Notes under the pieces: generated by a model | What the model was told of the DNA's origin: nothing | Seen by the model: the letters and a program-made list of their open reading frames with translations, nothing else | Databases searched by the model: none | Position numbers and translations under genes: made by a program | Shown: positions 2,118 to 19,265 of the stretch, in pieces | Numbering within the stretch: position 1 is the first letter of the stretch | Layout: every line of letters begins with the position of its first letter | Origin: Phenylobacterium sp. | GTDB lineage: Bacteria; Pseudomonadota; Alphaproteobacteria; Caulobacterales; Caulobacteraceae | DNA length: 64,000 nucleotides | Direction of reading: 5' to 3' | NCBI RefSeq assembly: GCF_030681155.1 | Contig: NZ_JAUXXE010000042.1 | Coordinates: forward strand, 19,638-83,637

Positions 2118-3002
2118 TCAAGCCGCGGCCGGGTGTCGCAGCGGCTCCAGCACCGGCTCCAGCGTCAGGTCGGACAAGGGTTCGAGCGCGCCGATCGTCC
2201 GATCGATCGCCGACCACGATCGCAGCTTGGCCCACTCCAGGATCTCCAGGCGGCCGTCCTCGTGCTCGACCAGGGCCGAGCAGCTTTCCACCCAATCGCC
2301 GTCGTTGATGTAGGCGATGCCGTCGATGTCGCGCATCTTGGCCTTATGGATGTGGCCGCAAATCACCCCGTCGACGCCGCGCCGACGGGCCTCGTCGGCG
2401 ACGGCGGCCTCGAAGTTCTCGACAAACTGGAGGGCGTTTTTGACGCGGGTCTTCAGGAAGGCCGAGAGGCTCCAATAGCCGAAGCCTAGTCGTCGCCTCG
2501 CCCGATTGAACAGCGTGTTGGCGGCGATCAGCGCCCGGTAGGCGTAATCCCCGACGAAGGCGAGCCACTTGGCGTGCTGGACGACGCCGTCGAATTCGTC
2601 GCCATGCAGGACCAGGAAGCGGCGGCCGTCAGCGGTCTCGTGGATCGCATCGCGAGCGACGACCACGCCGCCGAAATGGATGCCGATGAACTCTCGGATC
2701 CGGTCGTCATGATTTCCCGGTACGTAAACCACCCGCACGCCCTTGCGGGCCATGCGGAGAATTTTCTGCACCACGTCGTTGTGGGCCTGCGGCCAATACC
2801 AGCCTGAGCGTAGCTTCCAGCCATCGACGATGTCGCCCACGAGGTAGAGCGTATCGCACTCAATATGCCGGATGAAATCCAGCAATAGTTCGGCTTGGCA
2901 GCCCTTCGTGCCCAGGTGCACGTCGGAAATAAACACGGTCCGGTATTTGCGAATGGTCAGATCAGTCATTCCGTGCCCCCTCGGCTGCGGAGAACTGCTC
3001 AT
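2118..3002 (-). CDS. plcP: LpxH-like calcineurin-fold metallophosphoesterase, PlcP-type phospholipase C candidate
   Basis: Motifs are FISDVHLG, YLVGDIVDGW, VPGNHDD and LHGDEFD. A glycosyltransferase lies immediately downstream. The more likely start is ATG 2969-2967 (MTDLTIRKY), preceded by GAGGGGG; the 3002 start has no SD. Confidence 0.65.
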   Translation of the reverse strand: MSSSPQPRGHGMTDLTIRKYRTVFISDVHLGTKGCQAELLLDFIRHIECDTLYLVGDIVDGWKLRSGWYWPQAHNDVVQKILRMARKGVRVVYVPGNHDDRIREFIGIHFGGVVVARDAIHETADGRRFLVLHGDEFDGVVQHAKWLAFVGDYAYRALIAANTLFNRARRRLGFGYWSLSAFLKTRVKNALQFVENFEAAVADEARRRGVDGVICGHIHKAKMRDIDGIAYINDGDWVESCSALVEHEDGRLEILEWAKLRSWSAIDRTIGALEPLSDLTLEPVLEPLRHPAAA

Positions 3003-3016
3003 CGGTTAGGCTGATT

Positions 3017-3044
3017 GCATGTCATTCTCATGAAAGCGCACGTG
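3017..3044 (-). promoter_or_regulatory. Pho-box-like direct repeat upstream of plcP (weak candidate)
   Basis: The minus strand reads CTTTCAT-GAGA-ATGACAT. These are two 7-mers with a 4-nt spacer, matching CTGTCAT at 6/7 and 5/7, about 50-65 nt upstream of ATG 2969. Confidence 0.2.
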
Positions 3045-3122
3045 GCCCTTTTGTCGCCTCAGCTTTTGAATTAATGGTTTGGGAAGGCCGACCCTCCCCA
3101 GGTCTCCCGAAAACAAGGTCCA

Positions 3123-3758
3123 ATGGACGCCCGAACCTATCCTGCGAAGGAGACGCCGAAGTCTCGGCGTACCCGTGCGCGAATTCTCGACGCCGCCATG
3201 CGGTTGTTCGCCGAGGTCGGCTATCACGCCGCCACCAACGCCATGATCGCGGACGCCGCGAATCTGACGCGCGGCGCCATGCTCTATCACTTCGCCAGCC
3301 GCGAAGAGCTGGTCGAGGCGGCGGTGAGTCATATCGAGGTCGAGCGCGCGCGTCTGTTCGAGGCCGCCGCGTCCGGTCCGGTCGCGCCCGGCGTAGACGC
3401 CGCCGAGCAGGCGATCGACGCCTACTGGGCGCTGCTGCACGAAATCCCGTTCATCGCCTTCGCCGAGCTAGAGGCCGCCGCCCGCACCGACGCCATGCTG
3501 CGGGCCCGCCTGGCCAACGCGCAGAGCGCCTTCGACCACAATCAGGTCGGCGACCGCTTCCTCGCTCTGGCTCAGGCCGGCGGGGATCCCCGGTTCCAGA
3601 CCAGCCGCGATCTGGGACGGTTCCTGCTGGAAGGCCTGGCGCGCGGCGCCATGACCTTCGACGAGCAGGCCCGCAAGGAGCGCCTGCTGACCGTGGTCAA
3701 GCGCGCGGTGCGCGTGCTGAACCGCAAGGGCGACGTCCAGGAGCTGTGGCCGGACTAG
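3123..3758 (+). CDS. TetR/AcrR family transcriptional regulator
   Basis: The N-terminal HTH reads RTRARILDAAMRLFAEVGYHAATNAMIADAANLTRGAMLYHFASREEL. The protein is 211 aa and is divergent from plcP. Confidence 0.9.
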   Translation: MDARTYPAKETPKSRRTRARILDAAMRLFAEVGYHAATNAMIADAANLTRGAMLYHFASREELVEAAVSHIEVERARLFEAAASGPVAPGVDAAEQAIDAYWALLHEIPFIAFAELEAAARTDAMLRARLANAQSAFDHNQVGDRFLALAQAGGDPRFQTSRDLGRFLLEGLARGAMTFDEQARKERLLTVVKRAVRVLNRKGDVQELWPD

Positions 3759-3764
3759 TTTCTT

Positions 3765-3880
3765 GGATCCTCCCCCGCTGGGGGAGTTGGCGCGCGCAGC
3801 GCGACGGAGGGGGCGTGCGACAGAAGTCAAAGTCCCCTTCAGTCAGCTTTGCTGACAGCTCCCCCAGAGGGGGAGCATCG
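3765..3880. repeat. REP/BIME-like palindromic intergenic element, family 1, copy 1 (units tail-to-tail, GATC ends outward)
   Basis: It reads GATCCTCCCCCgctgGGGGGAG...CGCGCgcaGCGCG...GGAGGGGG then CCCCTTCagTCAGCtttGCTGAcagCTCCCCCagagGGGGGAGCATC. Related copies are at 15321, 21711 and 45462. Confidence 0.85.
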
Positions 3881-3903
3881 GCCTCTTGCTTGAGCGCGGT
3901 GGC

Positions 3904-5649
3904 TCACCCCACCTTCTCAGCCGCGATCCAGGCGTCGATGCGGCGCTCCAGCAGGTCCAGCGGCATGGGGCCGTCCAGCAGCATCGCGTCGTGGAAGCGG
4001 CGGATGTCGAACTTGTCGCCCAGTTCGGCCCGGGCCTTTTCGCGCAGGGCGATGATCTTCATCTCGCCGGTCTTGTAGGCCAGCGCCTGGCCGGGCCAGG
4101 AGACATAGCGGGCCAGTTCGACCTCGATGTTCAGCGGCGATAGCGCCGTGTTGTCGGTGAAGCAGGCGCGGGCCTGGTTCAGGCTCCAGCCCTTCCAGTG
4201 GATGCCGGTGTCGGCCACCAGGCGGCAGGCGCGCCACATCTCGTAGGACAGCCGCCCGAACCGCTCATAGGCGTTGCGATAGATTCCCATCTCGCCGCCG
4301 AGTTTCTCGGCATAGAGACCCCAGCCCTCGATGAAGGCGCTGACATCGGCCTCGCGGCGGAACATCGGCACGCCCTGCGCCTCCTGGCTGAGCGCGATCT
4401 GCAGATGATGGCCGGGCACGGCTTCGTGCAGGGTCAGGGCCGGCAGCTCATAGAGCCCCCGCTGGTCGAGCTTGTAGGTGTTGACCATGTAGCCGCCGGC
4501 GATCCCCAGTTTTGGATTGCCGGAGAAATAGCGGCCGGTCGTGTAGTCGGCCTCGACGTCGGCGGGGACGGGCCGCACGCCGTAGGTCAGGCGCGGCAGG
4601 GTGGCGAACCAGGCTGGGAGCTGGTCGTCGATCCGCTTGGCGATCTCCGAAGCCTTCTCCAGCAGGTCCTGGCGCGAGGTGGCGTAGAACTGAGGATCGG
4701 TGCGCAGGAAGGTCTGGAAGGCGGCGAAGTCGCCCTTGAAGCCGGTCTGGGCGATCACGCCGTCCATCTCCCTGCGGATCCGCGCGACCTCGTCGAGGCC
4801 GTTCTGGTGGATCTGGTCAGGGGTCAGCTTGGTGGTCGTGTGGTTCTCGACCAGCCAGGCATAGTAGCGCTCGCCGCCGGGCAGGCTGCGCGCCCCAAGC
4901 TGCTTCCGGCTGGCGGGCAGGTACTCGGTTGCCAGGAAGGTCGCGAACTCGGCCTGGGCCGGGCGGATCTTGTCGCGGACGACGGCGAGGGCTTCGGCCT
5001 GTAGGGCCTCGCGCTCCGCCTGGGGGATCGAGGTCGGCAGTTGCTCCAGCGGCGCCAGCATCGGGTCGCCCGCGAGGGGCGCTGCGGCCTGGGCCTTGGC
5101 GCGGGCCAGCACCTGCTCGCTCGTGCTGCGCGGCTGGGTGAAGCCCGACTTGATCCCTCGCCGGGCGTTGACGATCTCGGCGCGGTAGTAGGCCGGGACT
5201 GCGTTCAGACGGTCGATCCAGGCCTGCCCATCGGCCAAGGTCCGCATCGGCGTGGATGAGGCCAGGTAGCTGATGGTCCAGTCGAAGCCGTCGTCGGAAC
5301 TGAAGGGCATTCGGGCTTCGTCGAAAGCCAGGCGCTGAATCTGGCGCTCAAGCGTCCACTCCAGGAACTCGCGGTTCAGCTCGGCCGGGGCTGAAAGCTC
5401 GCTGGGTTTGATCGCGGCGAGCTGTTTCTGAAGTTCCTTCAGCCGTTTGGACCGGGCGACATCGGCGGCCAGGCTGGGGTCCGGCAGTCGCGACAGGGCG
5501 GCGCGATCGCCTTGGCTGCTGGCCAGGAGCGGGTCCTGCGACAGGCTGTAGGCTTCATAGTCGGCGACCAGCTTGTTCAGTGCGGCGTCATCGGCGAGCG
5601 CTGGCGTGGCGGCCAGGCTGAGGATGATGGCGAGAGGCGCGAGCCGCAT
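3904..5649 (-). CDS. DUF885-family secreted protein (metallopeptidase-like HExxH)
   Basis: It has a signal peptide MRLAPLAIILSLAATPALADD and the motif LHEAVPGHHLQ. It is 581 aa with an ATG at 5649. Confidence 0.8.
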   Translation of the reverse strand: MRLAPLAIILSLAATPALADDAALNKLVADYEAYSLSQDPLLASSQGDRAALSRLPDPSLAADVARSKRLKELQKQLAAIKPSELSAPAELNREFLEWTLERQIQRLAFDEARMPFSSDDGFDWTISYLASSTPMRTLADGQAWIDRLNAVPAYYRAEIVNARRGIKSGFTQPRSTSEQVLARAKAQAAAPLAGDPMLAPLEQLPTSIPQAEREALQAEALAVVRDKIRPAQAEFATFLATEYLPASRKQLGARSLPGGERYYAWLVENHTTTKLTPDQIHQNGLDEVARIRREMDGVIAQTGFKGDFAAFQTFLRTDPQFYATSRQDLLEKASEIAKRIDDQLPAWFATLPRLTYGVRPVPADVEADYTTGRYFSGNPKLGIAGGYMVNTYKLDQRGLYELPALTLHEAVPGHHLQIALSQEAQGVPMFRREADVSAFIEGWGLYAEKLGGEMGIYRNAYERFGRLSYEMWRACRLVADTGIHWKGWSLNQARACFTDNTALSPLNIEVELARYVSWPGQALAYKTGEMKIIALREKARAELGDKFDIRRFHDAMLLDGPMPLDLLERRIDAWIAAEKVG

Positions 5650-5799
5650 GATCAGTTCACCTGTGCAATGGAACGGCCAAGCTGGCGCCCCGGGGTTCTG
5701 GCGCCAAGGGCAATTTCAGCTAACGTCCTGGCTCGGCTTCGCGAAGAATCACCGTGTTCCATAGAAGGCGGCGCCGATCTGCATTGTCGGGGGAATTCG

Positions 5800-7206
5800 A
5801 TGAGCTTCGTGACGCGCCGCAAGCCGGTCGAGCCCCCAGCCAGCCACGGCGAGCACAGCCTGATCCGTACTTTGGGCTGGCCGCATCTAATGGCGCTGGG
5901 CGTCGGCGCCATCATCGGCACCGGGATCTACACCCTGACCGGCGTGGCGGCGGGCCTAGCCGGGCCGGGCGTCATTCTCTCCTTCGCCCTGGCCGGGGCG
6001 GTCTGCGCCTTCGCCGCGCTCTGCTACGTCGAGATGTCGACCCTGATGCCGCAGGCCGGCAGCGCCTACGCCTATTCCTATGTCGGCATGGGCGAGTTGA
6101 TCGCCTGGGTGGTCGGGTGGAGCCTGATCCTCGAATACACCGTCGTCTGTTCTACCGTTGCGGTCGGCTGGTCGGGCTATGCCGGCGGATTGATGCAGCA
6201 GGCGGGCTGGAACATGCCGGCGGAGTTCTTGGCCGGTCCCCACGCGGGCGGAATCGTCAACCTGCCGGCGGTCTTCATCACCCTGGCGGTCACCTGCCTG
6301 CTGCTGGTCGGCACCCGCGAAAGCGCGACGGTCAATTTCATCCTGGTGCTGGTGAAGTTGGTGGCGCTCAGCGCTTTCGTCGCGCTCACCCTGCCGAGCT
6401 TCAATCCCGAGCACTTCCACCCCTTCGCGCCGTTTGGGTTCGGCGCTCAGATCGGACCGGACGGCGTCAAGCGCGGGGTGGCGGCGGCGGCCGGCATCAT
6501 CTTCTTCGCCTTCTACGGCTTCGATGCGATCTCCACGGCGGCGGAGGAAGCCAAGGACCCAGGCCGCGACCTGACCATCGGCATCATCGGCTCGATGATC
6601 GCTTGCACCGCCATCTACATGATCGTCGCGGCAGCGGCGCTGGGCGCCTCGCCGTTCGAGGTGTTCTCCGCCAGCCCCGAACCCTTGGCCTTCATCCTGC
6701 GCGGCCTCGGCCATCCGCAAGTCGCCGCTGTCGTCGCCGGCGCGGCGGTCGTGGCACTGCCGACGGTGATCATGGTCTTCATGTTCGGCCAAAGCCGGAT
6801 CTTCTTCGCCATGGCGCGCGACGGCCTGCTGCCGCGCCGGCTGGCGGCGGTCGGCGCGCGCGGCGTGCCGGCCCCGGTCGTCATCCTGACCGGCGTGGTC
6901 GCCGCGGTGATCGGGGGCCTGCTGCCGCTGGGCGAGATCGCCGCCCTGGCCAACGCCGGCACCTTGCTGGCCTTTATCGCCACGGCGGTCGCGATGATGG
7001 TGCTGCGCCGGCGTTCCCCGAACTTGCCGCGTCCGTTCCGCACGCCGCTGTGGTGGCTGGTCGGGCCAATGGCGGTGGCGGGCTGCCTCTATCTGTTCTC
7101 GACCTTGCCGGTCTCGACCATCGTCAACTTCCTGATCTGGAACGCGATCGGGGTGGTGGTCTACTTGCTGTACGGCCGGGTCAGGAGCCGGTTGGCGAAC
7201 GCCTAG
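5800..7206 (+). CDS. APC-superfamily amino acid permease
   Basis: From the internal ATG at 5800 it reads MSFVTRRKP...GWPHLMALGVGAIIGTGIYTLTG, with about 12 hydrophobic segments. The upstream part of ORF 5512-7206 overlaps the DUF885 gene and its promoter region. Confidence 0.85.
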   Translation: MSFVTRRKPVEPPASHGEHSLIRTLGWPHLMALGVGAIIGTGIYTLTGVAAGLAGPGVILSFALAGAVCAFAALCYVEMSTLMPQAGSAYAYSYVGMGELIAWVVGWSLILEYTVVCSTVAVGWSGYAGGLMQQAGWNMPAEFLAGPHAGGIVNLPAVFITLAVTCLLLVGTRESATVNFILVLVKLVALSAFVALTLPSFNPEHFHPFAPFGFGAQIGPDGVKRGVAAAAGIIFFAFYGFDAISTAAEEAKDPGRDLTIGIIGSMIACTAIYMIVAAAALGASPFEVFSASPEPLAFILRGLGHPQVAAVVAGAAVVALPTVIMVFMFGQSRIFFAMARDGLLPRRLAAVGARGVPAPVVILTGVVAAVIGGLLPLGEIAALANAGTLLAFIATAVAMMVLRRRSPNLPRPFRTPLWWLVGPMAVAGCLYLFSTLPVSTIVNFLIWNAIGVVVYLLYGRVRSRLANA

Positions 7207-7354
7207 CGGCTTCCTGGATGACAGCCATGGGCGCCGCGCCTAGAGTCTGCTTCGCCTACTCCCCTGGCGATCGTGCCAAGCAAGAGCCTCGCCCGTATTC
7301 AAGGGTGGGCCGGGGGCAGGCCGGCGCGCATTCATCGCGCCTTGGGGAGCGATT

Positions 7355-8899
7355 GTGAGTTCGACGCCGAAAGAGGCCGCGGCCGGCCGTATGAGCGGGC
7401 CTCCTGGGGGCGCTGGTCCCCGCGCGGGAATGCAGGACCTGACGGTCGGGCCGATCGCCAAGACTCTGATTGTCTTCGCCATGCCGGTGCTTGGCTCCAA
7501 CATCCTGCAGTCGCTGAACGGATCGGCGAACGCCATTTGGGTCAGTCACGTGCTGGGCGAGGCGGCCCTGACCGCCACGGTCAACGCCAACAACATCTTC
7601 TTCCTGATGCTGGGCGCCGTGTTCGGCATCAGCATGGCCGCGAACCTGCTCATCTCGCAGTCGGTGGGCGGCAAGGATCTGGCCATGGTCAAGCGGGTGG
7701 TCGGTTCGGCCACCACCTTCTTCCTGGTGCTCTCCCTGGCGGTCGGGGTCGCGGGCTATCTGCTGACCCCGGCGGTGCTGAAGATCATGCAGACCCCGCC
7801 AGACGCGACGCGGGATGCGATCATCTATCTGCGGGTGATCTTCCTCGCGATGCCGTTCATGTACTTCTTCTCGTTCGTCATGATGGCGCAGCGCGGGGCG
7901 GGCGATTCCAAGACGCCCTTCTGGTTCTCGGTTTTCGCGGTCGGCATGGACGTGATCCTGAACCCGCTGCTGATCATCGGGGTCGGGCCGTTCCCGACCC
8001 TGGGCATCGCTGGCTCGGCGGCCGCCACGCTGATCAGCCAGACGGTCACCCTGGCGGCGATGATCGTCTATCTCTACCGCACCGACAGCGTGTTGATCCT
8101 GAAGCGCCACGAATGGCGGATGCTGATCCCGCAGATGGAGATCCTCAAGACCCTGGTGGTGAAGGGTTTCCCGATGGCCCTGCAGATGCTGGTCATCTCC
8201 GGCGCGGCGGTGGTGATGATCCGCTTCGTCAACGCCTATGGCTCGGAGACCGCCGCCGGCTACGGCGCGGCGATCCAGCTGTGGACCTACATCCAGATGC
8301 CAGCCATGGCGCTGGGCGCCGCAGTGTCGTCGATGGCCGCCCAGAACGTTGGCGCGGGCAAGATGGACCGCGTGGGCGCGATCGCCAAGCAAGGGGTGCT
8401 GATCGCCATGGTGATGACCGGCGTGCCGGTGTTGCTGATCTATCTGATCGAGCCGTGGGTGCTGCTCCTGTTCCTTCCGGCCTCCAGCCCTTCGACCCCC
8501 ATCGCCATGCACATCAACGCCTATGTGCTGTGGGGCTTCATTCCGTTCGGCATGGCCTTCGTGCTGAACGGCATCATTCGCGCGACCGGGGCGGTGTGGC
8601 CGCCGCTGATCGGGCTGCTGGTCTCGATGTGGTTCGTGCGGATCCCGTTCGCCCAGTTCCTGGAGCCTTATCTGGGCCAGGACGCCATCTGGTGGAGCTT
8701 CCCGCTGGGTTCGATCATCTCGCTGGTCCTGGCGGCGAGCTATTATCGCTGGGGCGGCTGGCGCAAGGCTACGCTGATGAAGGGCCTGCCGCACGGATCG
8801 GCGGCCGACACCGGCCTTGGCACCCCCATGCTGGCCGAGGAGAGCGAGGCGCTGGACGAGGCGGCTCGCGCTCAACCGGCCAGGGCGCCGGCTCAGTAG
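7355..8899 (+). CDS. MATE family efflux transporter
   Basis: It reads IAKTLIVFAMPVLGSNILQSLNGSANAIWVSHVLGEAALTA, with 12 predicted TM-like segments. The start is GTG with GGGGAG 6 nt upstream. Confidence 0.85.
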   Translation: MSSTPKEAAAGRMSGPPGGAGPRAGMQDLTVGPIAKTLIVFAMPVLGSNILQSLNGSANAIWVSHVLGEAALTATVNANNIFFLMLGAVFGISMAANLLISQSVGGKDLAMVKRVVGSATTFFLVLSLAVGVAGYLLTPAVLKIMQTPPDATRDAIIYLRVIFLAMPFMYFFSFVMMAQRGAGDSKTPFWFSVFAVGMDVILNPLLIIGVGPFPTLGIAGSAAATLISQTVTLAAMIVYLYRTDSVLILKRHEWRMLIPQMEILKTLVVKGFPMALQMLVISGAAVVMIRFVNAYGSETAAGYGAAIQLWTYIQMPAMALGAAVSSMAAQNVGAGKMDRVGAIAKQGVLIAMVMTGVPVLLIYLIEPWVLLLFLPASSPSTPIAMHINAYVLWGFIPFGMAFVLNGIIRATGAVWPPLIGLLVSMWFVRIPFAQFLEPYLGQDAIWWSFPLGSIISLVLAASYYRWGGWRKATLMKGLPHGSAADTGLGTPMLAEESEALDEAARAQPARAPAQ

Positions 8900-8940
8900 G
8901 GCGAGCCCTAGAAAAATCGCGCTGCAACGCTTGGGCGCCG

Positions 8941-8969
8941 TTGCGTCACGCAAACAAGCGTTTGATAAT
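8941..8969 (+). promoter_or_regulatory. Candidate promoter TTGCGT-N17-GATAAT with an embedded CAAAC-AAGC-GTTTG palindrome (possible TetR/PsrA-like operator)
   Basis: TTGCGT lies at 8941-8946 and GATAAT at 8964-8969. A perfect 5+5 inverted repeat with a 4-nt spacer lies at 8951-8964, about 125 nt upstream of the acyl-CoA dehydrogenase start. Confidence 0.3.
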
Positions 8970-9089
8970 GGTGGAGAGGTCGGCGCCCTAAGGGGCTGTC
9001 CGGGCGCGACATTTTTCCAAGGCGGCGCGACCCGCCATACCGCTTTTTTGAAAATCGCCTGCGCGAGGCGGGCATATGGGAGACGCTAG

Positions 9090-10409
9090 ATGGCTTGGGA
9101 TTTCGAAACGGATCCAGAATTCCAGAAGAAACTCGACTGGATTGAGGACTTCATGCGCGAGGAGGTCGAACCCCTCTCGCACCTCGGCATGGCGGTGCAC
9201 GGCCCGCTGGGCCGCGAGAAGTTCATCAAGCCGCTTCAGCAGAAGGTTAAGGATCAGGGGCTTTGGGCCTGCCACCTCGGCCCGGAACTGGGCGGCCAAG
9301 GCTTTGGTCAGCTCAAGCTTGGCCTGATGAACGAGAAGCTGGGCCGCAACGGCCTCGCGCCGACGGTCTTCGGCTGCCAGGCGCCTGACACCGGCAACGC
9401 CGAGATCATCGCCCACTACGGCACCGACAAGCAGAAAGAGCAGTACCTCTGGCCGCTGCTGAACGGCGACATCCGCTCGGCCTTCTCGATGTCCGAACCG
9501 ACCGGTGGCTCCGACCCGCTGACGTTCAAGACCCGCGCGGTCCTGGACGGCAACGAGTGGGTGATCAACGGCGAGAAGTGGTTCTCGACCAACGCCCGCT
9601 ATTCCAAGGTTCTGGTGCTGTACGCGGTCACCGATCCGGACGCCAAGGACCCCTATCGCCGGACCTCGATCTTCCTGGTGCCCACTGACACCCCCGGCGT
9701 CGAGATCGTCCGCAATGTCGGCGTCGGCAGCGGCGAGATCGGCAACGGGAGCGAGGGCTATGTCCGCTACACCAACGTGCGGGTTCCCTATGACGCCCTG
9801 CTCGGCGAGCGCGGCGCGGCCTTCGTCATCGCCCAGGTCCGCCTGGGCGGCGGCCGGGTCCACCACGCCATGCGCACGGTCGGCGCCTGCAAGCACGCGC
9901 TCGACTTGATGTGCCGCCGTGCGGTCTCGCGCACCACGCGTGATGGCAAGCTGGCCGACCTGCAGATGGTGCAGGAGCAGATCGCCGACTCCTGGATCGC
10001 TCTGGAACAGTTCCGCCTGCTGGTGCTGCGCACCGCCTGGCTGATCGACAAGCACAAGGACTACAACCTGGTGCGTAAGGACATCGCGGCCATCAAGGTC
10101 GCCATGCCCAAGGTCTATAACGACATCGCCACCAAGGCCGCCCACCTGCACGGCGCGCTGGGCGTCTCCAACGAAATGCCCTTCATGCATATGGTCACCA
10201 GCTCGCTGGTGATGGGCATCGCCGACGGTCCGACCGAGGTCCACAAGGTCACGGTCGCCAAGCAGGTTCTGAAGGACTACCGGCCCGACAACGACCTCTT
10301 CCCCAGCTACCACATCCCGCGCCTGCGGGAGGCTTCGGAAGAGAAGTACGCCAAGGAGCTCGGTGAGCTGAAGGAAGCCTACAAGGCTCGCGCCAAGACC
10401 GACGCCTAG
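9090..10409 (+). CDS. acyl-CoA dehydrogenase family protein
   Basis: It reads MAWDFETDPEFQKKLDWIEDFMREEV...FSMSEPTGGSDPLTFKT...GEKWFSTNA, with a GGGAGA SD. It is 439 aa. Confidence 0.9.
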   Translation: MAWDFETDPEFQKKLDWIEDFMREEVEPLSHLGMAVHGPLGREKFIKPLQQKVKDQGLWACHLGPELGGQGFGQLKLGLMNEKLGRNGLAPTVFGCQAPDTGNAEIIAHYGTDKQKEQYLWPLLNGDIRSAFSMSEPTGGSDPLTFKTRAVLDGNEWVINGEKWFSTNARYSKVLVLYAVTDPDAKDPYRRTSIFLVPTDTPGVEIVRNVGVGSGEIGNGSEGYVRYTNVRVPYDALLGERGAAFVIAQVRLGGGRVHHAMRTVGACKHALDLMCRRAVSRTTRDGKLADLQMVQEQIADSWIALEQFRLLVLRTAWLIDKHKDYNLVRKDIAAIKVAMPKVYNDIATKAAHLHGALGVSNEMPFMHMVTSSLVMGIADGPTEVHKVTVAKQVLKDYRPDNDLFPSYHIPRLREASEEKYAKELGELKEAYKARAKTDA

Positions 10410-10420
10410 ACAGGTTCGCC

Positions 10421-10450
10421 CCGAGACGCGCCCGGCAGGGTGCGTCTCGG
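10421..10450. terminator. GC-rich hairpin between convergent genes (possible bidirectional terminator)
   Basis: CCGAGACGC (10421-10429) pairs with GCGTCTCGG (10442-10450) around a 12-nt loop. There is no clear U-tract. Confidence 0.35.
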
Positions 10451-10460
10451 AGCAGCTTGG

Positions 10461-10826
10461 CTACAATTCCGGGGGTGGTTGGCTGAAGTCCACAATGGGC
10501 CGAACCTCGACCGTGCCGATCCGGGCCTGTGGGATGCCGGCGGCGACCTGAACCGCTTCATTGAGGTCGCTCGCCTCAATGATGATGAAGCCGCCCAGCA
10601 TCTCCTTGGTCTCCATGAACGGCCCATCGACGGCCGACATCTTCCCGCCCCGCATCCGCACGGTCATGGCTTCGTGGGGCATGGTCAGGGCCTCGCCGGC
10701 CACGAAGTGGCCGCTGGCAGTGAGGACCTCGTCATAGGTCGAGCATTCGGCCAGGACGCTGTTGGCCTCCGGGCCGCCGCCAAAGAGCGTCTCTGGATCG
10801 TAGTAGATGATGCAGGCGTAGCGCAT
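10461..10826 (-). CDS. YciI-family (dimeric alpha/beta barrel) protein
   Basis: The start is ATG 10826-10824 with an AAGGAG SD, giving MRYACIIYYDPETLFGGG...VDGPFMETKEMLGGFIIIEA. The upstream extension to 10880 overlaps the neighbouring gene. Confidence 0.8.
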   Translation of the reverse strand: MRYACIIYYDPETLFGGGPEANSVLAECSTYDEVLTASGHFVAGEALTMPHEAMTVRMRGGKMSAVDGPFMETKEMLGGFIIIEASDLNEAVQVAAGIPQARIGTVEVRPIVDFSQPPPEL

Positions 10827-10840
10827 GAAGGCTCCTTGTC

Positions 10841-11554
10841 TCAGGCGTCGAAAATGGGGGCGAAGCCGCCGTGGACCCAACGCTGGGCGTCATAGGGCGT
10901 GTCGGCCGCGTGCATGCGCGGGTCGGCGAACACCTTCTGCCAGGCCTGGTCGCGGACCGCCTTCGATGGCCATTCGATCCAGCTGAACACGACGGTCTCA
11001 TCGCTCGTCGCTTTCACCGCTTGCTTGAAGTCGGTGACCTTGCCGTCCGGTACATTGTCGCCCCAGCCATCGACGACGCGGGTCGCGCCGTACTCGATCA
11101 GGACGGCCGCCTGAAGGGTGGTCAGGTCGCGATAGGCCTCCTTGTTGGCCTCCGGAACCGCGAGCAAGGAGCCGTCGATATATCCGGCTGGCCCAGCAGC
11201 GCCCGCCTCGATGATCGGGATGAAGCCGCCATAGACCATGCGTCCGCCGTCGAACGGCATATCGGCGCCCATTTCCTCCATACGCGGGTCGCTGATCATT
11301 TGCTGATGGGCGGCCTCGGCCGCCGCCTTGTCGGGATACTCGTGCCAGGCGAACACGATCACCTCGCCGGGCTGAGCCTTCACCGCACCCTTGAAATCGG
11401 TGACCTGGCCGTCGGGCACGTCGTCGCCCCAGGCCTCGACCATCCTGGTCACGCCGAACTCCCGAAACAGCGACGCCGCGTCGGCGGCATGCTTGCGATA
11501 GGCTTCCTTGTTCGCGGCGGGGACTGCGGCGACGAACCCTTGCACATAGGCCAT
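10841..11554 (-). CDS. tandem-duplicated DUF1428 protein
   Basis: There are two internal repeats: residues ~1-117 (VPAANKEAYRKHA...WGDDVPDGQVTDFKGAV...DPRMEEM...YGGF) and ~125-237 (VPEANKEAYRDLT...WGDNVPDGKVTDFKQAV...DPRMHAA...HGGF). Confidence 0.8.
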   Translation of the reverse strand: MAYVQGFVAAVPAANKEAYRKHAADAASLFREFGVTRMVEAWGDDVPDGQVTDFKGAVKAQPGEVIVFAWHEYPDKAAAEAAHQQMISDPRMEEMGADMPFDGGRMVYGGFIPIIEAGAAGPAGYIDGSLLAVPEANKEAYRDLTTLQAAVLIEYGATRVVDGWGDNVPDGKVTDFKQAVKATSDETVVFSWIEWPSKAVRDQAWQKVFADPRMHAADTPYDAQRWVHGGFAPIFDA

Positions 11555-11833
11555 GGCTTCTTTCCTTTCGGCTGTCTTGGCGAGTGTTCCTCGAACCCGC
11601 CTTGAATGCGACTGGTCGTTCGGCGGCGGCCGGATTCGACATCGGCTCGGAATTTTTTTGACCTACAAGCTCGCCGCTTCGATGGCCCTTACGCCCCGGC
11701 CAATTTCGCGATGTCGCGGCTCAATCGGAAACCAAGGGTGTACCGGGCGGGAAGCCTGACGCTAGTGTGCGGGGCTCCGTTTTTGGAAGCTCCTTCTCTG
11801 CATTTTTAGCTGTTTCATTCTCGAGGACATTGC

Positions 11834-13606
11834 GTGACCGACGTGCAGACCCAGACGCCGCCCCCCGCAGCTTCCACCTGGCCGGTGGTGTCGCTGGCTA
11901 AGGCCCATGCGCAATTGACCGCGCCGGGCCAACGCTTTGAGATCGAGGAGAAGGTGATCCGGGGCGTGAACACCCGCACCTGGAAGAACGCGCCGGCCAC
12001 TCTGCGCGACATCTTCCTGAACGGCCGCACGTTCCAGGACCGCGAGTTCCTGGTCTACGAGGACGACCGCGCCACCTTCGAGACCTTCGCTCGCGCGACC
12101 ATCACCCTGGCCCGCCAGCTTCAGGCGGACGGCGTGAAGAAGGGCGACCGCGTCGCCGTCATCATGCGCAACATCCCTGAATGGCCGGTGGCGTTCTGGG
12201 CCGGGATCCTGGCCGGCGCGATCGTCACGCCGCTGAACGCCTGGTGGACCGGGCCGGAGCTGGAATACGGCTTGGCCGATTCCGGGACCAAGATCGCCAT
12301 TGTCGATGACGAGCGGCTGGAGCGGATCACCGCCTCGTTCGACGCCTTGCCGAGCCTGGAAAAGGTCTATGCGCCGCGCCTGGCGGCGGACCCGACCGAC
12401 CCCAAGGTGCGCCGCTTGGAGGACGTGATCGGCAAGGTGAACGACTGGGGCCTACTGGCCGACCAGCCGTTGCCCGACGTGCCGCTGGAACCGGAGGACG
12501 ACGCGACGATCCTCTATACCTCGGGCACTACGGGCAAGCCGAAGGGCGCGCTGGGCACCCATCGCAACATGACCTCGAACATCATGGCCAGCGGCATCTC
12601 GGCGACGCGGAACTTCCTGCGCGCCGGCCAGCCCTTGCCGGAATCCGACCCGCACAAGCTGCCCCAGCGGGTGAACCTGCTGGTGGTGCCGATGTTCCAC
12701 GCCACCGGCCTCAGCGCCAACCTGTCGCCGGCCATGAATTCGGGCGGAAAGATCGTGCTGATGCGCCGCTGGGAGACCGAGCCGGCCATGGCCCTGATCG
12801 AGCGCGAGAAGGTGAATTCCACCGGCGGCGTGCCGACCATCGCCTGGCAGCTGATCGAACACCCGGCCCGCGAGAAATACGACCTCTCCAGCCTGATGTC
12901 GGTGGCCTATGGCGGGGCGCCCTCGGCGCCGGAACTGGTGCGCAAGATCGTCGAGGTGTTCCCGGCGTCCCAGCCCGGCAACGGCTGGGGGATGACCGAG
13001 ACCACCGCCACCTTCACGTCGCACCTGGGCAAGGATTACGAGAACCGCCCCGACAGCGCTGGCCCGGCCGCGCCGGTCGGCGAGATGGAGATCCGCGACC
13101 CGGCCGACGGCAAGACGGTGCTGGCGCCGAACGTCGTCGGCGAGCTGTGGGTCAAGGGGCCGCAGGTCGTGAAGGGCTATTGGAACAAGCCGGAGGCCAC
13201 GGCCGAAACCTTCGTCAACGGCTGGCTGCGCACGGGGGATCTGGCGCGCCTGGACGACGAGGGCTTCCTGTTCATCGTCGACCGGGCCAAGGACATGCTG
13301 ATCCGGGGCGGTGAAAACATCTACTGCGTCGAGGTGGAGAATGTGCTGTACGACCACCCCGACGTGATGGACGCCGCCTTGGTCGGCATCCCGCACAAGA
13401 CGCTGGGCGAGGAACCGGCCGCCGTGGTTCACCTGAAGCCGGGCGGCACGGCCGACGAGGCGGAGCTGAAGGCGTTCGTTCGCGAGCGGCTGGCGGCGTT
13501 CAAGGTTCCGGTGAAGGTCGTCGTCTGGCCTGAAACCCTGCCGCGAAACGCCAACGGCAAGATCGTGAAGACGGAGCTGAAGAAGGTGTTCGAGGGTGAG
13601 GCATGA
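11834..13606 (+). CDS. AMP-dependent synthetase/ligase (acyl-CoA synthetase, class I adenylate-forming)
   Basis: Motifs are ILYTSGTTGKPKGA, GWGMTET, LRTGDLARLDDEGFLFIVDRAKDMLIRGGENI and the terminal NGKIVK. The start is GTG with a GAGGA SD. Confidence 0.9.
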   Translation: MTDVQTQTPPPAASTWPVVSLAKAHAQLTAPGQRFEIEEKVIRGVNTRTWKNAPATLRDIFLNGRTFQDREFLVYEDDRATFETFARATITLARQLQADGVKKGDRVAVIMRNIPEWPVAFWAGILAGAIVTPLNAWWTGPELEYGLADSGTKIAIVDDERLERITASFDALPSLEKVYAPRLAADPTDPKVRRLEDVIGKVNDWGLLADQPLPDVPLEPEDDATILYTSGTTGKPKGALGTHRNMTSNIMASGISATRNFLRAGQPLPESDPHKLPQRVNLLVVPMFHATGLSANLSPAMNSGGKIVLMRRWETEPAMALIEREKVNSTGGVPTIAWQLIEHPAREKYDLSSLMSVAYGGAPSAPELVRKIVEVFPASQPGNGWGMTETTATFTSHLGKDYENRPDSAGPAAPVGEMEIRDPADGKTVLAPNVVGELWVKGPQVVKGYWNKPEATAETFVNGWLRTGDLARLDDEGFLFIVDRAKDMLIRGGENIYCVEVENVLYDHPDVMDAALVGIPHKTLGEEPAAVVHLKPGGTADEAELKAFVRERLAAFKVPVKVVVWPETLPRNANGKIVKTELKKVFEGEA

Positions 13607-14178
13607 CTGTGCGTAAGCCGCTGATCGTCGGCATCGGCGGCACCACCCGTCCCGGGTCGTCCAGCGAGTGCGCGCTGCAGTGCGCCTTGCGGACCGTCGA
13701 AGCCGGGGGCGGGGAGACCCGCCTGCTCGGCGGCGAGTTCCTGTCGCATCTGCCGATCTTCAATCCGGCCAACGCCGACCAGACCGACGAGCAGAAGCTG
13801 CTGGCCGACACCGTGCGCCAGGCGGACGGCGTGATCGTCGCCAGTCCCGGCTATCACGGCTCGATCTCCGGGGTGATCAAGAACGCCCTGGATACGCTCG
13901 AGGTGCTGCGCACCGACGAGCGGCCTTACCTGACCGACCGCGCAGTCGGCTGCATCATCACCGCCGACGGCTGGCAGGCCGCCGGCACCACTTTGACAAC
14001 GCTGCGCTCGATCATACATGCGCTGCGGGGCTGGCCGACGCCGTTCGGCGCAGCCCTCAACTCGACGTCCCCCCTGTTCGACGCCACCGGCGCCTGCAAC
14101 GAGGCCAAGGACGCCTGGCAACTTACCACCGTTGGCGAGCAGGTCCTGGACTTCGCCAAGATGAAGGCCCGTACATGA
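13603..14178 (+). CDS. NADPH-dependent FMN reductase family protein
   Basis: It reads KPLIVGIGGTTRPGSSSE...ADGVIVASPGYHGSISGVIKNALD. Its ATG overlaps the ligase stop (ATGA at 13603-13606). Confidence 0.85.
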   Translation: MTVRKPLIVGIGGTTRPGSSSECALQCALRTVEAGGGETRLLGGEFLSHLPIFNPANADQTDEQKLLADTVRQADGVIVASPGYHGSISGVIKNALDTLEVLRTDERPYLTDRAVGCIITADGWQAAGTTLTTLRSIIHALRGWPTPFGAALNSTSPLFDATGACNEAKDAWQLTTVGEQVLDFAKMKART

Positions 14179-15320: not shown

Positions 15321-15430
15321 GGGGCTTCCCCTTCCGTCGCGCTGCGCGCTACCTCCCCAGCGGGGGAGGATCTGGTCGCCTTAGATGCTCCCCCGTTGGG
15401 GGAGTTGTCGCCGCAGGTGACTGTGGGGGG
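15321..15430. repeat. REP/BIME-like element, family 1, copy 2 (reverse orientation, GATC ends inward)
   Basis: It contains ...CCTCCCCagcGGGGGAGGATC...GATGCTCCCCCgttgGGGGGAG... It lies in the gap between the ribBX stop (15320) and the methyltransferase stop (15432). Confidence 0.8.
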
Positions 15431-15431
15431 C

Positions 15432-16178: not shown

Positions 16179-16573
16179 GTTGCTATGGGCGCCCGCGATT
16201 CATGGCAATCGAAGTTCGGTGAACCAAGCTGGGCCGTAGCGGTCTTCGACATGCTGGAGCAGCGCTTGGCGCGCGACGCCCGTTTGAGGTCGTCGAGCCG
16301 CGCGAGCAGCCGGGCGCTGGCGGCCGGAGGCGGAGCTCCGAGCGAGGCTGGGAATAGGAAGGCTTGGGCGGTCTGGCCCTCACGCGGTTCGCGCTCGCGT
16401 TTGCTGGCTGAGACATAGGCCCGGTGGGTGAGGGCCAGTTCGGAGGCCAACTGACTACACGACAAGTTGCTGTAGTCGGGCGGCTGGGGCCCCAGCGCCG
16501 CCGTGGTGGTTGGTGTTGTCGCGCACGCCGTCAGCATGGCCGCGGCGGCGATCGGAAGGATCGCGCCTTTCAT
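16079..16573 (-). CDS. small lipoprotein; the 3' ~100 nt overlap the methyltransferase start and may be a non-native extension
   Basis: It has a lipobox MKGAILPIAAAAMLTAC and a GGAGG-like SD. The first ~100 codons look coding; the tail SWRASNSPASAPPTPSSAGAQPATATSEAGA is off-frame relative to the methyltransferase gene. Confidence 0.55.
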   Translation of the reverse strand: MKGAILPIAAAAMLTACATTPTTTAALGPQPPDYSNLSCSQLASELALTHRAYVSASKREREPREGQTAQAFLFPASLGAPPPAASARLLARLDDLKRASRAKRCSSMSKTATAQLGSPNFDCHESRAPIATWSWRASNSPASAPPTPSSAGAQPATATSEAGA

Positions 16574-16782
16574 TCCTGGAGCCCTCCCAAGGGGTCATTG
16601 TTGGAATGACTTTGGCACGTCCGTGGTAATTGTCTCGCGCGAACATCGCCCTGACGGACTTTGCCGCGGAGCCGCCCCGAGGATTGTCGTTTTCTTGGGC
16701 GCTGAACCCGCCTATATGACAGGTTGCTTCATTGCACCGCCCGGCCGAAAGGCCGGGCGCCGTCATTTTGGGGAAGACCGTC

Positions 16783-17451: not shown

Positions 17452-17463
17452 GGGATATCGACG

Positions 17464-18500: not shown

Positions 18501-18501
18501 C

Positions 18502-19256: not shown

Positions 19257-19265
19257 AAGCGCAGG

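Follow-up and report, generated by a model that had tools for sequence, protein, structure and literature searches.

Four intergenic sites in a 64,000-nucleotide stretch of Phenylobacterium DNA (the window) hold pairs of short hairpin-forming units, and the question they raise is whether it is the structure of these units that has been kept, and if so in which molecule. A sequence-only reading had proposed that each site carries two copies, in opposite orientation, of one unit with a conserved outer hairpin and a covarying inner hairpin, and that the sites belong to a REP/BIME-like family selected for its structure, as RNA or as single-stranded DNA.

Anatomy of the repeat unit

All four elements are present where that reading had placed them, as 8 units in 4 inverted pairs. 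The pattern CTCCCCN{3,7}GGGGAG matches the window 9 times, against 0.06 matches expected from shuffled sequence, and 8 of the matches are the claimed units. A covariance model searched against the whole window with filters off returns exactly these 8 units (34-52 bits, E <= 4e-6), and the rest of the 64-kb window contains no score above 18 bits. The seed alignment of this model included four designed, non-natural stem variants; the model served for detection and alignment only, and the covariation statistics below come throughout from natural sequences. Each pair in the window consists of one unit ending in CATC (type A) and one ending in GATC (type B), with the heads together in elements 1 and 3 and the tails together in elements 2 and 4. 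All four elements sit between convergent ORF stops and begin 1-25 nt past the stop codons. Their coordinates, with covariance-model scores in bits and the predicted compatibility of the base triads considered below, are as follows.

Element 1, 3765-3880, unstranded: head-to-head dimer of unit B reversed, a 20-nt spacer and unit A forward; flanked by a plus-strand ORF stop (3756-3758) and a minus-strand ORF stop (3904).
Unit 1, 3765-3813, minus strand: type B; 48.8 bits; 7/7 triads predicted compatible; the plus strand is the G-rich one and carries, in order, GATC, the outer hairpin (Y arm CTCCCCC, loop GCT and R arm GGGGGAG; 3770-3786), the inner hairpin CGCGC-GCA-GCGCG (3791-3803) and, in the head region (3804-3813), GAGGGGG as third block.
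Unit 2, 3834-3880, plus strand: type A; 51.7 bits; head CCCCTTC (3834-3840), the mirror of its arm at 6/7 positions; inner hairpin GTCAGC-TTT-GCTGAC (3842-3856); outer hairpin CTCCCCC-AGA-GGGGGAG (3859-3875); tail CATC.
Element 2, 15328-15430, unstranded: tail-to-tail dimer of unit B forward and unit A reversed, outer hairpins 19 nt apart; fills the whole gap from the stop at 15318-15320 to the minus-strand ORF stop at 15432-15434.
Unit 3, 15328-15373, plus strand: type B, slightly decayed; 35.4 bits; head CCCCTTCC; inner hairpin at 15337-15351, TCGCGC-TGC-GCGCTA, in which a single pair is mismatched (C.T); outer hairpin CTCCCC-AGCG-GGGGAG (15353-15368); tail GATC.
Unit 4, 15383-15430, minus strand: type A; 49.6 bits; outer hairpin 15388-15404; inner hairpin at 15407-15421, GTCACC-TGC-GGCGAC, in which a single pair is mismatched (A.C); head CCCCCCAC, which is GTGGGGGG on the plus strand (15423-15430); third block predicted compatible at 7/7 with T*A-T permitted.
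Element 3, 21710-21835, unstranded: head-to-head dimer of unit B reversed, a 25-nt spacer with a GAGTC site and unit A forward; flanked by stops at 21695-21697 and 21844.
Unit 5, 21710-21760, minus strand: type B; 43.0 bits; 8/8 triads predicted compatible; outer hairpin (C)CTCCCCC-GAC-GGGGGAG(G) (21715-21731); inner hairpin TCGCC-TTC-GGCGA (21737-21749); head CCCCCTCC, inside 21750-21760; the G-rich strand, plus strand of 21710-21760, is AGATCCTCCCCCGTCGGGGGAGGTGGATCGCCGAAGGCGAGACGGAGGGGG.
Unit 6, 21786-21835, plus strand: type A; 46.6 bits; 7/7 triads predicted compatible; head CCCCCTC; inner hairpin TCAGCC-ATTC-GGCTGA (21795-21810); outer hairpin CTCCCCC-AGA-GGGGGAG (21814-21830); tail CATC.
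Element 4, 45463-45577, unstranded: tail-to-tail dimer of unit A forward and unit B reversed, 21 nt between outer hairpins; starts 2 nt past the TAG of an AMP-binding gene (45459-45461) and ends 15 nt short of the stop of a convergent TetR-family gene (45593).
Unit 7, 45463-45511, plus strand: type A; 49.8 bits; head CCCCCCTC (45463-45470); inner hairpin at 45472-45486, GTCAGC-TTC-GCTGCC, in which a single pair is mismatched; outer hairpin CTCCCCCC-AGA-GGGGGAG (45489-45506); tail CATC.
Unit 8, 45523-45577, minus strand: type B; 34.0 bits; 7/8 triads predicted compatible; outer hairpin 45528-45544; inner hairpin TCGTTGC-TAC-GCAACGA (45550-45566); head CTCCCTCC, inside 45567-45577.

Some details of the earlier description need amending. 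The outer loop, given there as 4 nt, is 3 nt in 6 of the 8 units, and the stem-loop written TCGCC-ttcg-GGCGA is correctly read as TCGCC-TTC-GGCGA. The inner stems had been called different in almost every unit and always self-complementary; they are mostly both, with CGCGC-TGC-GCGCG common to two units and one mismatch in each of three stems (those of units 3, 4 and 7). The outer hairpin, said to be conserved in sequence, is indeed nearly invariant across the copies of relatives. Among these copies the two unit types alternate in orientation, head-to-head and tail-to-tail spacers are distinct, and three-unit arrays exist.

On the G-rich strand the unit reads 5'-GATS-CTCCCCC (Y)-N3-GGGGGAG (R)-N2-3-[5-7 bp stem, GNA loop]-N1-2-GAGGGGG (RH)-3', where the first loop is 3-4 nt and the second 'loop' is a linker of 18-28 nt that encloses the inner hairpin. 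The inner loop is C-TNC-G in approximately 79% of units, and thus c-GNA-g on the opposite strand; we rejected RNA UNCG tetraloops as an identification, the loops being 3-nt TNC closed by C-G rather than C(UNCG)G. A G-quadruplex and an i-motif were also rejected, as there are too few tracts per strand, and Watson-Crick pairing of the head with GAGGGGG works only if the outer loop is AGA and hence is not general.

Covariation of the inner hairpin and of the mirror-image head

The claim of compensatory change in the inner stem is borne out by the relatives. Across 73 distinct inner hairpins 81.2% of cells are paired, compared with 47.1% in shuffles; none of 500 shuffles reached the observed value, and sliding the pairing partners gives 24-45%. 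The covariation score is 0.725 versus 0.158, pairs 2-5 each show all four Watson-Crick types, and the pair counts are 345 Watson-Crick, 2 G.T and 5 A.C. When units were picked by the outer hairpin and tail alone, a perfect stem of at least 5 bp lay upstream in 76% of them, against 3.7% in shuffles. Orthologous copies give a concordant picture, with changes at 0/66 stem and head positions and at 8 of approximately 24 loop and linker positions; in the orthologue of element 3 in Phenylobacterium sp. Root700 (locus L113, 5188-5290) the stems are all identical and the loops altered. We note that compensatory change in DNA palindromes can also come from template-switch mutation without selection.

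A second relationship involves the head. The CCCCYTC block had been listed as a conserved motif and it is conserved, but it is not a plain motif: it is the mirror image of the 5' arm of the outer hairpin and covaries with that arm. Of 522 oriented entries, 198 have upstream of them a perfect mirror of their own pyrimidine arm, corresponding to approximately three-quarters of the physical hairpins, whereas direct copies of the arm are found 39 times and permuted arms 18 times. Examples of arm and head are CCTTCTCCC with CCCTCATCC, CCTCTCCC with CCCTCTCC, and CTTCCCCC with CCCCCTTC. In a specificity matrix of approximately 10 arm types each type is accompanied by its own mirror at 0.83-1.0, and almost never by the mirror of a different type or by a direct copy; these blocks are low-complexity runs of C/T or G/A and the minor arm types have 1-8 copies each, so the effective sample is the ~10 subfamilies and not the copy number. 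We also note that many Sphingomonas heads begin with A where the mirror predicts C. Because a mirror copy cannot be produced by templated copying, the relationship indicates selection.

Since the head mirrors the pyrimidine arm, the G-rich strand reads Y-R-RH, the block order of a purine-motif intrastrand triplex. Being R reversed, RH could be accommodated antiparallel in the major groove through G*G-C, A*A-T and T*A-T triads. By these rules every triad is compatible in 5 of the window's 8 units, and the other 3 have one incompatible triad each. Seven triads, most of them G*G-C, would make a short triplex, and its formation is predicted from sequence rules.

Genomic position, spread and turnover

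The family extends well beyond the four sites, to at least 119 loci in an exact-pattern scan with one genome per species, and 169 units were counted in 100 related loci covering 740 kb. Among the matches listed, the sources are Caulobacteraceae, Sphingomonadales and unclassified (alpha)proteobacterial MAGs, apart from approximately 5 stray matches to the outer hairpin. The density in the window is approximately one dimer per 16 kb. The window itself resembles Phenylobacterium sp. Root700, and many family copies are located at contig ends.

The copies lie at gene ends. With gene contexts taken from a crude GC3-based ORF caller, 45 intergenic copies lie between convergent genes, 46 between tandem genes and 1 between divergent genes, where the background proportions are 22%, 59% and 19%; the 19 elements called 'inside' ORFs are probably artefacts of this caller. 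The upstream stop is at a median distance of 31 nt and the downstream ORF at one of 225 nt, and 6 of approximately 12 convergent gaps in the window, counted by eye, hold a dimer of this family or of the second family described below. Orientation with respect to transcription is unbiased: single units in tandem contexts are forward in 7 cases and reverse in 6, and the order of A and B shows no bias either.

It is conceivable, although we think it doubtful, that the units act as RNA in the 3' untranslated region, terminating transcription in both directions or blocking 3'-5' exonucleases in the manner of E. coli REPs, in which case a dimer would offer each of two convergent transcripts a hairpin set that it could use. 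Such a role is favoured by the position downstream of genes of 91 of the 92 classified intergenic copies, with stop codons only tens of nucleotides away, and by the very stable folding of the dimers as RNA from either strand (z = -3.2 to -5.7; element 1, -76 kcal/mol, z = -5.7); RNA can, moreover, form pyrimidine-motif triplexes (PMC4666352). Against it, the hairpins have no U-tract, their tails reading SATCT and then mixed sequence, and a scan of 3000-22900 for intrinsic terminators picks up no unit. Rfam gives 0 matches at gathering thresholds and, at E <= 1, one unrelated match at 5913-5982. Unbiased orientation is not what an RNA role leads one to expect, and G.U pairs are no commoner than A.C, which one would not usually see in an RNA helix under selection on a single strand. 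In E. coli, PIT/BoxC repeats are reported to be without terminator or promoter activity (PMC4666352), and a plain hairpin model leaves the mirror-image head without a role.

Position also bears on whether the units are DNA sites for a host protein or for topology, that is, gyrase or nucleoid-protein sites as for BIMEs, or a cruciform or H-DNA sink for supercoiling, which we consider quite improbable. The enrichment between convergent genes speaks for such a site, as does conservation of the head and of the outer palindrome CTCCCCC-N3-GGGGGAG in sequence over two orders, but half of the copies are in tandem contexts, and convergent gaps build up positive supercoiling, which would disfavour extrusion. 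The outer arm also differs among subfamilies while the mirror relation is retained, which favours structure over a fixed protein-binding sequence. A homopurine/homopyrimidine mirror repeat is the sequence requirement of H-DNA (PMC4666352), although arms of 7-9 bp are short for it.

Whole units are gained, lost and rearranged at orthologous sites. At one such site the window has no element, Root700 has a head-to-head dimer and Caulobacter sp. 602-2 has a tail-to-tail dimer; a second is head-to-head in one species and tail-to-tail in another, with flanks approximately 95% identical; at a third, two species carry different subfamilies. The Root700 insertion is accompanied by a GCGCC direct repeat, which may be a target duplication or may reflect microhomology-mediated deletion. 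Element 4 has an identical copy in four metagenome contigs of the same strain, and their candidacy as an empty site was rejected, the shorter gene call being a frameshift.

This turnover is one of several features that would suit a plain REP- or REPIN-type element moved by a RAYT-like (HUH Y1) enzyme, with the mirror relation a product of low complexity and shared descent; we regard this as unlikely. The presence or absence of whole dimers is accompanied by inverted doublets of two unit types, as in BIMEs and REPINs, and by homogenisation of loop sequences within genomes (AGC in 5/5 Root700 units, AGA in most Caulobacter units), and HUH enzymes are reported to recognise a hairpin together with a conserved flanking motif (PMC3479197, PMC8266576). 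However, a phmmer search with the E. coli RayT protein, a distant query and therefore a weak test, gave no match at E <= 10 among ORFs of 80 aa or longer from the window and the 119 loci (975 kb), and the GTAG tag is absent. For the alpha-proteobacterial CGTC REPs, too, Di Nocera et al. (PMC3733652) found no dedicated transposase. In addition, the mirror is specific to arm type and does not extend to direct or permuted arms, which composition alone explains poorly.

Relation to known repeats and the form under selection

The label REP/BIME-like captures the organisation of what is a real and widespread repeat family, and not its units. As in the REP/BIME repeats of enterobacteria and pseudomonads and in REPINs, these are short extragenic palindromes of high copy number that prefer heterodimers, with two alternating unit types, distinct head-to-head and tail-to-tail linkers, and placement between convergent or co-directional genes, near 3' ends, and almost never between divergent genes. 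Unlike REPs, the unit consists of two stem-loops and a mirror-image third block, its outer stem is strictly homopyrimidine/homopurine, and the defining features of REPs were not found: there is no GTAG, and the weak search described above gave no RAYT. Only some type B hairpins are preceded by CGTC, and those of type A have CAGTC. The REP/RAYT papers that we examined do not mention hosts of the Caulobacteraceae or Sphingomonadales type.

Closer in hosts are the CGTC REPs, which as described by Di Nocera et al. (2013, PMC3733652) occur in alpha-proteobacteria including sphingomonads, mostly as head-to-head dimers and commonly as heterodimers, no more than 20 nt from the 3' ends of ORFs and without a known dedicated transposase. 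Many of our type B inner hairpins have CCGTC before and CCAC after them. We nevertheless rejected identity with CGTC REPs on stem and loop geometry: they are described as having 8-9 bp stems starting with A-T pairs, 4-5 nt loops and a CCA tail, whereas the present stems are 5-7 bp and mostly G/C, with 3-nt loops, and the hairpin is nested within the unit, flanked by the head on one side and the outer hairpin on the other. The CIR elements of Caulobacter (Chen and Shapiro 2003, through the summary in PMC2229807) resemble the family as intergenic inverted repeats of approximately 110 bp in Caulobacter and relatives. By that summary CIRs are defined by GANTC, the CcrM site, in the centre of one inverted repeat; GANTC is absent from 8/8 window units and from the dimers of C. 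vibrioides T5M6, and identity with CIRs, as summarised there, was rejected. GAGTC adjoins the head of type A only in the element 3 spacer and in some Phenylobacterium copies. Literature searches with CTCCCCCAGAGGGGGAG, GGGGGAGGATC and similar strings returned unrelated papers only.

The nearest described relatives are instead the BoxC/PIT/TMECO intrastrand-triplex repeats of E. coli (Hoyne et al. 2000; Holder et al. 2015, PMC4666352), with which the family shares the block order of pyrimidine arm, purine arm and reverse-Hoogsteen block. TMECO/BoxC is CCCTCTCCC-loop-GGGAGAGGG-TTA/CCG-GGGTGAGGG and forms a triplex in vitro; it is always intergenic, its inverted pairs always join type A to type B, and in vivo footprinting did not detect the triplex and no function was found (PMC4666352). 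In both, the third block is the reversed purine arm with T permitted opposite A-T; both are G/C-rich, intergenic and strand-unbiased, often present as inverted pairs that always join two unit types, with loops less conserved than stems and sites that vary among close relatives. The differences are also clear. TMECO has 9-nt arms in the pattern CCCTCNCCC-N3-6-GGGNGAGGG-N3-GGGNGAGGG, while the present family has arms of 7-8 nt (CTCCCCC/GGGGGAG/GAGGGGG), a conserved GATS tail, and, in place of a 3-nt second loop, the long linker with its covarying 5-7 bp hairpin and GNA/TNC triloop. TMECO is commoner upstream of ORFs and the present copies lie directly after stop codons, in Caulobacterales and Sphingomonadales. 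Triplex searches have allowed loops of 1-6 nt (ITxF) or 0-10 nt (Hoyne et al.), as quoted in PMC4666352, and a second loop of 18-28 nt exceeds both limits, so that published searches miss variants with structured linkers.

The window also contains a second, TMECO-like family, at 24145-24280 and 29735-29858, whose head is common to the first. The reverse complement of 24240-24275 reads CCTCTCCCC-GCC-GGGGAGAGG-TCG-GGTGAGGG, near the TMECO pattern, and the head mirrors the arm at 8/9 positions, the lone A-for-T being an allowed T*A-T triad on the G-rich strand. The ninth pattern match, at 24256, belongs to this family, which the covariance model of the first family matches weakly, and the second family occupies a site where Root700 has a unit of the first.

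Taken with the anatomy, these comparisons lead us to the view, held with slightly better than even confidence, that this is a non-coding, non-autonomous repeat family of BoxC/BIME type, defined by structure and acting mainly as single-stranded DNA. In such a fold Y and R would pair as the invariant outer hairpin and RH would join as a third strand, giving a class II purine-motif intrastrand triplex of the kind that E. coli BoxC/TMECO forms in vitro, with the variable hairpin as a structured linker from R to RH. The selected form may be single-stranded DNA transiently exposed at replication or transcription, and the folds may be needed for the family to persist and for whole units to be gained, lost and rearranged. 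Copies would survive only just past gene ends, sparing promoters, and stable hairpins at mRNA 3' ends, in both directions, would be a side effect. Selection on structure, left open by the sequence-only reading between RNA and single-stranded DNA, holds as to structure, and several of our results lean to DNA or to strand-symmetric selection because G.U is almost absent, orientation is unbiased, and the GNA triloop and the purine-motif layout lie on the other strand; 3'-end placement fits an RNA role equally well. A narrower proposal, which we put forward tentatively and judge short of probable, is that the units are under selection for self-folding of the G-rich DNA strand as a purine-motif triple helix, with a GNA mini-hairpin closing it.

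To our knowledge, the triplex motifs of BoxC, PIT and TMECO have been known for 25 years without evidence that the triplex matters in cells. Earlier arguments for it were abundance and in vitro folding. What is new here is the many natural variants in which pyrimidine arm, purine arm and third block change together, the same type of argument that established RNA secondary structures, and the family joins REP/BIME-like organisation in alpha-proteobacteria to the BoxC class. Because the elements are frequent, lie at gene ends, vary among close relatives and break assemblies at the contig ends where many copies are found, they are relevant to annotation, to strain typing and to the 3'-UTR biology of Caulobacter, a model organism. 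If the narrower proposal is right, the coordinated three-way changes over approximately 10 arm variants would be the first comparative evidence of functional bacterial intrastrand DNA triplexes, and the triplex fold could be a recognition or priming structure for copying the repeats to the 3' ends of genes.

Repeat units in the window and in related genomes

We have found that the window carries four intergenic elements, each built from two units of a repeat, here called family 1, in which a head is followed by an inner hairpin, an outer hairpin and a SATC tail. The sequence-only reading had described four stretches with paired units, and their contents were verified in the sequence. The pattern CTCCCCN{3,7}GGGGAG has nine matches in the window against 0.06 expected; eight are the claimed units, and the one at 24256 is part of a related repeat, family 2. 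A covariance model run on both strands of the window with filters off returned exactly the eight units, at 34-52 bits, and no further match above 18 bits. Since its seed held four stem variants of our own design, the model was restricted to detection.

Family-1 units in the window, as placed by the covariance model
3765-3813, minus strand, family-1 unit of element 1
3834-3880, plus strand, family-1 unit of element 1
15328-15373, plus strand, family-1 unit of element 2
15383-15430, minus strand, family-1 unit of element 2
21710-21760, minus strand, family-1 unit of element 3
21786-21835, plus strand, family-1 unit of element 3
45463-45511, plus strand, family-1 unit of element 4
45523-45577, minus strand, family-1 unit of element 4

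Every element joins one CATC-tailed unit (type A) to one GATC-tailed unit (type B), head-to-head in elements 1 and 3 and tail-to-tail in elements 2 and 4. Each of the four occupies the gap between two convergent ORF stops and begins 1-25 nt past the stop codons; the G+C content of the window is 66%. We note that element 4 lies directly 3' of one of two AMP-binding (acyl-CoA synthetase-like) paralogues, at 12131-13339 and 44013-45188, whose DNA identity is 76-77%.

The proposal that these units form a repeat family holds beyond the four window sites, as scanning one genome per species for the exact pattern gave at least 119 loci. Hosts among the matches listed are Caulobacter, Phenylobacterium, Brevundimonas, Sphingomonas, Novosphingobium, Sphingopyxis and Sandarakinorhabdus, together with MAGs labelled just Alphaproteobacteria, Proteobacteria or Pseudomonadota; ~5 stray outer-hairpin matches, again among those listed, fall outside these host groups. 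Among the matches listed the covariance model found 169 units in 100 loci (740 kb). The majority of units are in dimers, with outer hairpins 63-111 nt apart when head-to-head and 17-31 nt apart when tail-to-tail, and three-unit arrays of alternating orientation were also seen. In Caulobacteraceae the dimers are A/B heterodimers; in sphingomonads type B is joined to a third type, CCCCTCCACC-stem-GGTCCCC. Over 7.6 kb the window shares 86-90% identity with a contig (L113) of Phenylobacterium sp. Root700, and its source is therefore a near relative of Root700; exact protein matches came only from metagenome contigs of the window's own strain.

Several individual copies deserve mention. In a Sphingopyxis MAG (L078), near-identical head-to-head dimers at 6736-6860 and 7784-7908 stand on both sides of murB, between co-directional genes of the cell-division (dcw) cluster, which points to a local duplication or conversion in the recent past and shows that the element is tolerated within an operon. 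Many units lie no more than 100 nt from the ends of short contigs (e.g. L017, L034, L045, L069, L085, L123), and the repeat apparently breaks short-read assemblies of Caulobacter genomes. A single copy in Christiangramia antarctica, from the unrelated phylum Bacteroidota (L024 617-648, CCCCCTC-TAA-CTCCCCC-TAA-GGGGGAG-GATC), has the three blocks and tail of family 1 with a 3-nt linker replacing the hairpin, and could be due to chance or to a separate triplex-motif family. Three clustered ACTCCCCC-N-GGGGGAGT-type hairpins with differing flanks in a Pseudomonadales MAG (L052 5899-6010) perhaps represent an unrelated repeat of homopyrimidine/homopurine hairpins in a gamma-proteobacterium.

The covarying inner stem and the mirrored head

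Among 175 units chosen by outer hairpin plus SATC tail alone, a perfect stem of 5 bp or longer lies within 25 nt upstream in 76%, against 3.7% in shuffles. In 73 distinct sequences anchored by the loop only, 81.2% of cells are paired, compared with 47.1% in shuffles (0 of 500 reach the observed value) and 24-45% when partners are slid; covariation scores 0.725 as opposed to 0.158, and pairs 2-5 each show all of C-G, G-C, A-T and T-A. The inner stem is thus kept self-complementary by compensatory change, as had been claimed from sequence alone, and the structural argument built on that claim is upheld by the covariation in these 73 sequences.

The inner loop is not free either, and reads C-TNC-G in ~79% (triplets TTC, TCC, TGC and TAC). 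On the opposite strand it reads c-GNA-g, which we take to be a DNA mini-hairpin of the exceptionally stable d(GCGNAGC) class described by Hirao and colleagues. Across the five inner pairs there are 345 Watson-Crick pairs, 2 G.T and 5 A.C, so that wobble is almost nil. RNA helices under selection on a single strand usually tolerate G.U and not A.C; the symmetry of G.T and A.C fits selection on both strands or at the DNA level.

The outer hairpin is nearly invariant, its 5' arm always all-pyrimidine and its 3' arm always all-purine. Relatives with other arms were met at orthologous sites (such as CCTCTCCC, CCTTCTCCC, CTTCCCCC, CCCTTCCCCC and CCTCCTCCC), and in these the head, the block 5' of the inner hairpin, is the reverse and not the complement of the unit's own pyrimidine arm.

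Pyrimidine arms and the heads found with them
arm CTCCCCC, head CCCCCTC
arm CCTCTCCC, head CCCTCTCC
arm CTTCCCCC, head CCCCCTTC
arm CCTTCTCCC, head CCCTCATCC
arm CCTCCTCCC, head CCCACCTCC
arm CCCTCTCTC, head CTCTCACCC

With every hairpin entered in both orientations, and A accepted where the mirror calls for T, a perfect mirror of the arm occurs in 198 of 522 oriented entries, or ~3/4 of hairpins, against 39 for direct copies and 18 for permuted arms. Each arm type has its own mirror at 0.83-1.0 in a specificity matrix, and another arm's mirror almost never. Because a templated process cannot make a mirror copy, the relation must reflect selection or chance, and chance is unlikely across ~10 arm types, with the reservation that the sequences are of low complexity and the minor arm types have few copies.

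Kinship with BoxC/PIT/TMECO repeats

Read on the G-rich strand, a unit runs 5'-GATS - CTCCCCC - N3 - GGGGGAG - linker with hairpin - GAGGGGG-3', an order that we read as that of a putative purine-motif intrastrand triplex of class II, with pyrimidine arm, purine arm and third, reverse-Hoogsteen block (Y-R-RH). The third block would sit antiparallel to the purine arm, in G*G-C and A*A-T or T*A-T triads, and heads with A for T place T in the third block, a permitted T*A-T triad. The Y-R-RH architecture is shared with E. coli BoxC, later named PIT elements and TMECO, of the form CCCTCTCCC-loop-GGGAGAGGG-TTA or CCG-GGGTGAGGG (PMC4666352). In MG1655 there are 23 TMECO copies, all intergenic and without strand bias, with five inverted pairs, each of type A plus type B; the triplex formed in vitro, in vivo footprinting did not reveal it, neither promoter nor terminator activity was detected, and motifs of the TMECO pattern are listed in the supplement for C. 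crescentus (17 copies) and Sphingopyxis (6 copies) (Holder et al. 2015, PMC4666352). Family 1 fits neither the published pattern nor the loop lengths allowed in the published searches (1-6 nt and 0-10 nt), and its second loop, unlike that of TMECO, is an 18-28-nt linker bearing a covarying hairpin. The nearest known kin of family 1 are the BoxC/PIT/TMECO intrastrand-triplex repeats; the earlier analogy with REP/BIME elements is fair for organisation, but REPs are not the closest kin. The GNA loop, a DNA-favoured motif, shares one strand with the purine-motif layout. This layout is DNA-favoured too, given the statement that purine-motif triplexes are impossible in RNA (Holder et al. 2015, PMC4666352).

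Rfam gave no family match for units in the window (gathering thresholds and E <= 1), a terminator scan of window 3000-22900 found no U-tract terminator at units, and a search by sequence found no unit sequences in the open literature. A weak test, phmmer with a distant E. coli RayT query, detected no RayT homologue in 975 kb. Compared by published description, CIR elements are probably a different repeat, the units being without GANTC, and the CGTC REPs, as described, differ from family 1 in hairpin geometry.

Family 2 occurs at window 24145-24280 and 29735-29858 as head-to-head dimers (AATTCCTCTCCCTCGGGAGAGGYTAGGTGARGGG ... CCCTCACCCGACCTCTCCCCGNNGGGGAGAGGAGAAGAG) without an inner hairpin, both between convergent genes. 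Its reverse complement, CCTCTCCCC-GCC-GGGGAGAGG-TCG-GGTGAGGG, fits the E. coli BoxC/TMECO triplex layout, making the family TMECO-like by its sequence. The site orthologous to 24145-24280 is occupied in Root700 by a family-1 unit whose head is that of family 2, in a comparison left incomplete by an N run (L113 ~2905-2915) that masks the dimer's left unit. A tandem intergenic gap at window 37120-37260 holds two 34-nt arms, CTTCGTCATCCTGGGCCTTGTGCCTAGGACCCCT and its reverse complement, which are separated by 73 nt and complementary at 97%; the arm was found once more, in a Phenylobacterium MAG (L088 3502-3533), and this third small repeat may be a MITE or else a REP dimer of the CGTC type.

Placement, turnover and the proposed form under selection

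Genomic context of 92 elements, by a crude GC3-based gene caller
convergent: 45 of 92 elements; background 22% of intergenic regions
tandem: 46 of 92 elements; background 59% of intergenic regions
divergent: 1 of 92 elements; background 19% of intergenic regions

Elements in tandem contexts lie a median of 31 nt from the upstream stop and 225 nt from the downstream ORF; 19 more elements called 'inside' ORFs are taken as artefacts of the GC3-based caller. There is no orientation bias relative to transcription, either for single units (7 forward, 6 reverse) or for A/B order (3 versus 4). An RNA-level role in the 3'-UTR, the main rival explanation, agrees with this location, but we consider it rather improbable, as it explains neither the mirror head nor the missing wobble pairs nor the lack of orientation bias.

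Element 3 and its Root700 orthologue differ at 0 of 66 positions in stems and head, at 8 of ~24 positions in loops and linker, and by a 13-nt indel in the spacer. Window 19253-19266 is an empty site, with 9 nt (AAGCGCAGG) between the stops of a small conserved gene and a convergent gene; here Root700 has a ~150-nt insertion with a head-to-head dimer and GCGCC on both flanks, which may reflect either target duplication or microhomology, and Caulobacter sp. 602-2 has a tail-to-tail dimer. C. vibrioides T5M6 and C. hibisci, with ~95% identical flanks, have A reversed then B in one and B then A reversed in the other, as if differing end units had been lost from an alternating array; at a second site one has a family-1 dimer and the other a lone CCTTCTCCC-type unit. 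These orthologous sites thus indicate that elements are gained, lost and remodelled unit-wise at gene 3' ends, paralleling the instability of TMECO sites, where local variability between strains is reported to be elevated (PMC4666352).

On balance we lean slightly towards a BoxC/BIME-like repeat whose selected form is transient single-stranded DNA. Transiently single-stranded DNA would fold into the inner GNA hairpin and the Y-R-RH triplex, copies would survive only just 3' of genes, and turnover would proceed through gain and loss of units; that this folding takes place in vivo, that DNA is preferred to RNA and how the element spreads are what we infer here. Folded as RNA, the dimers reach -58 to -80 kcal/mol (z = -3.2 to -5.7). 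As a likely by-product, the 3' ends of mRNAs from both directions would carry stable hairpins, which the host might have co-opted. The three-way covariation in these repeats provides a direct way to address a long-standing question, whether intrastrand triplexes matter in bacteria.
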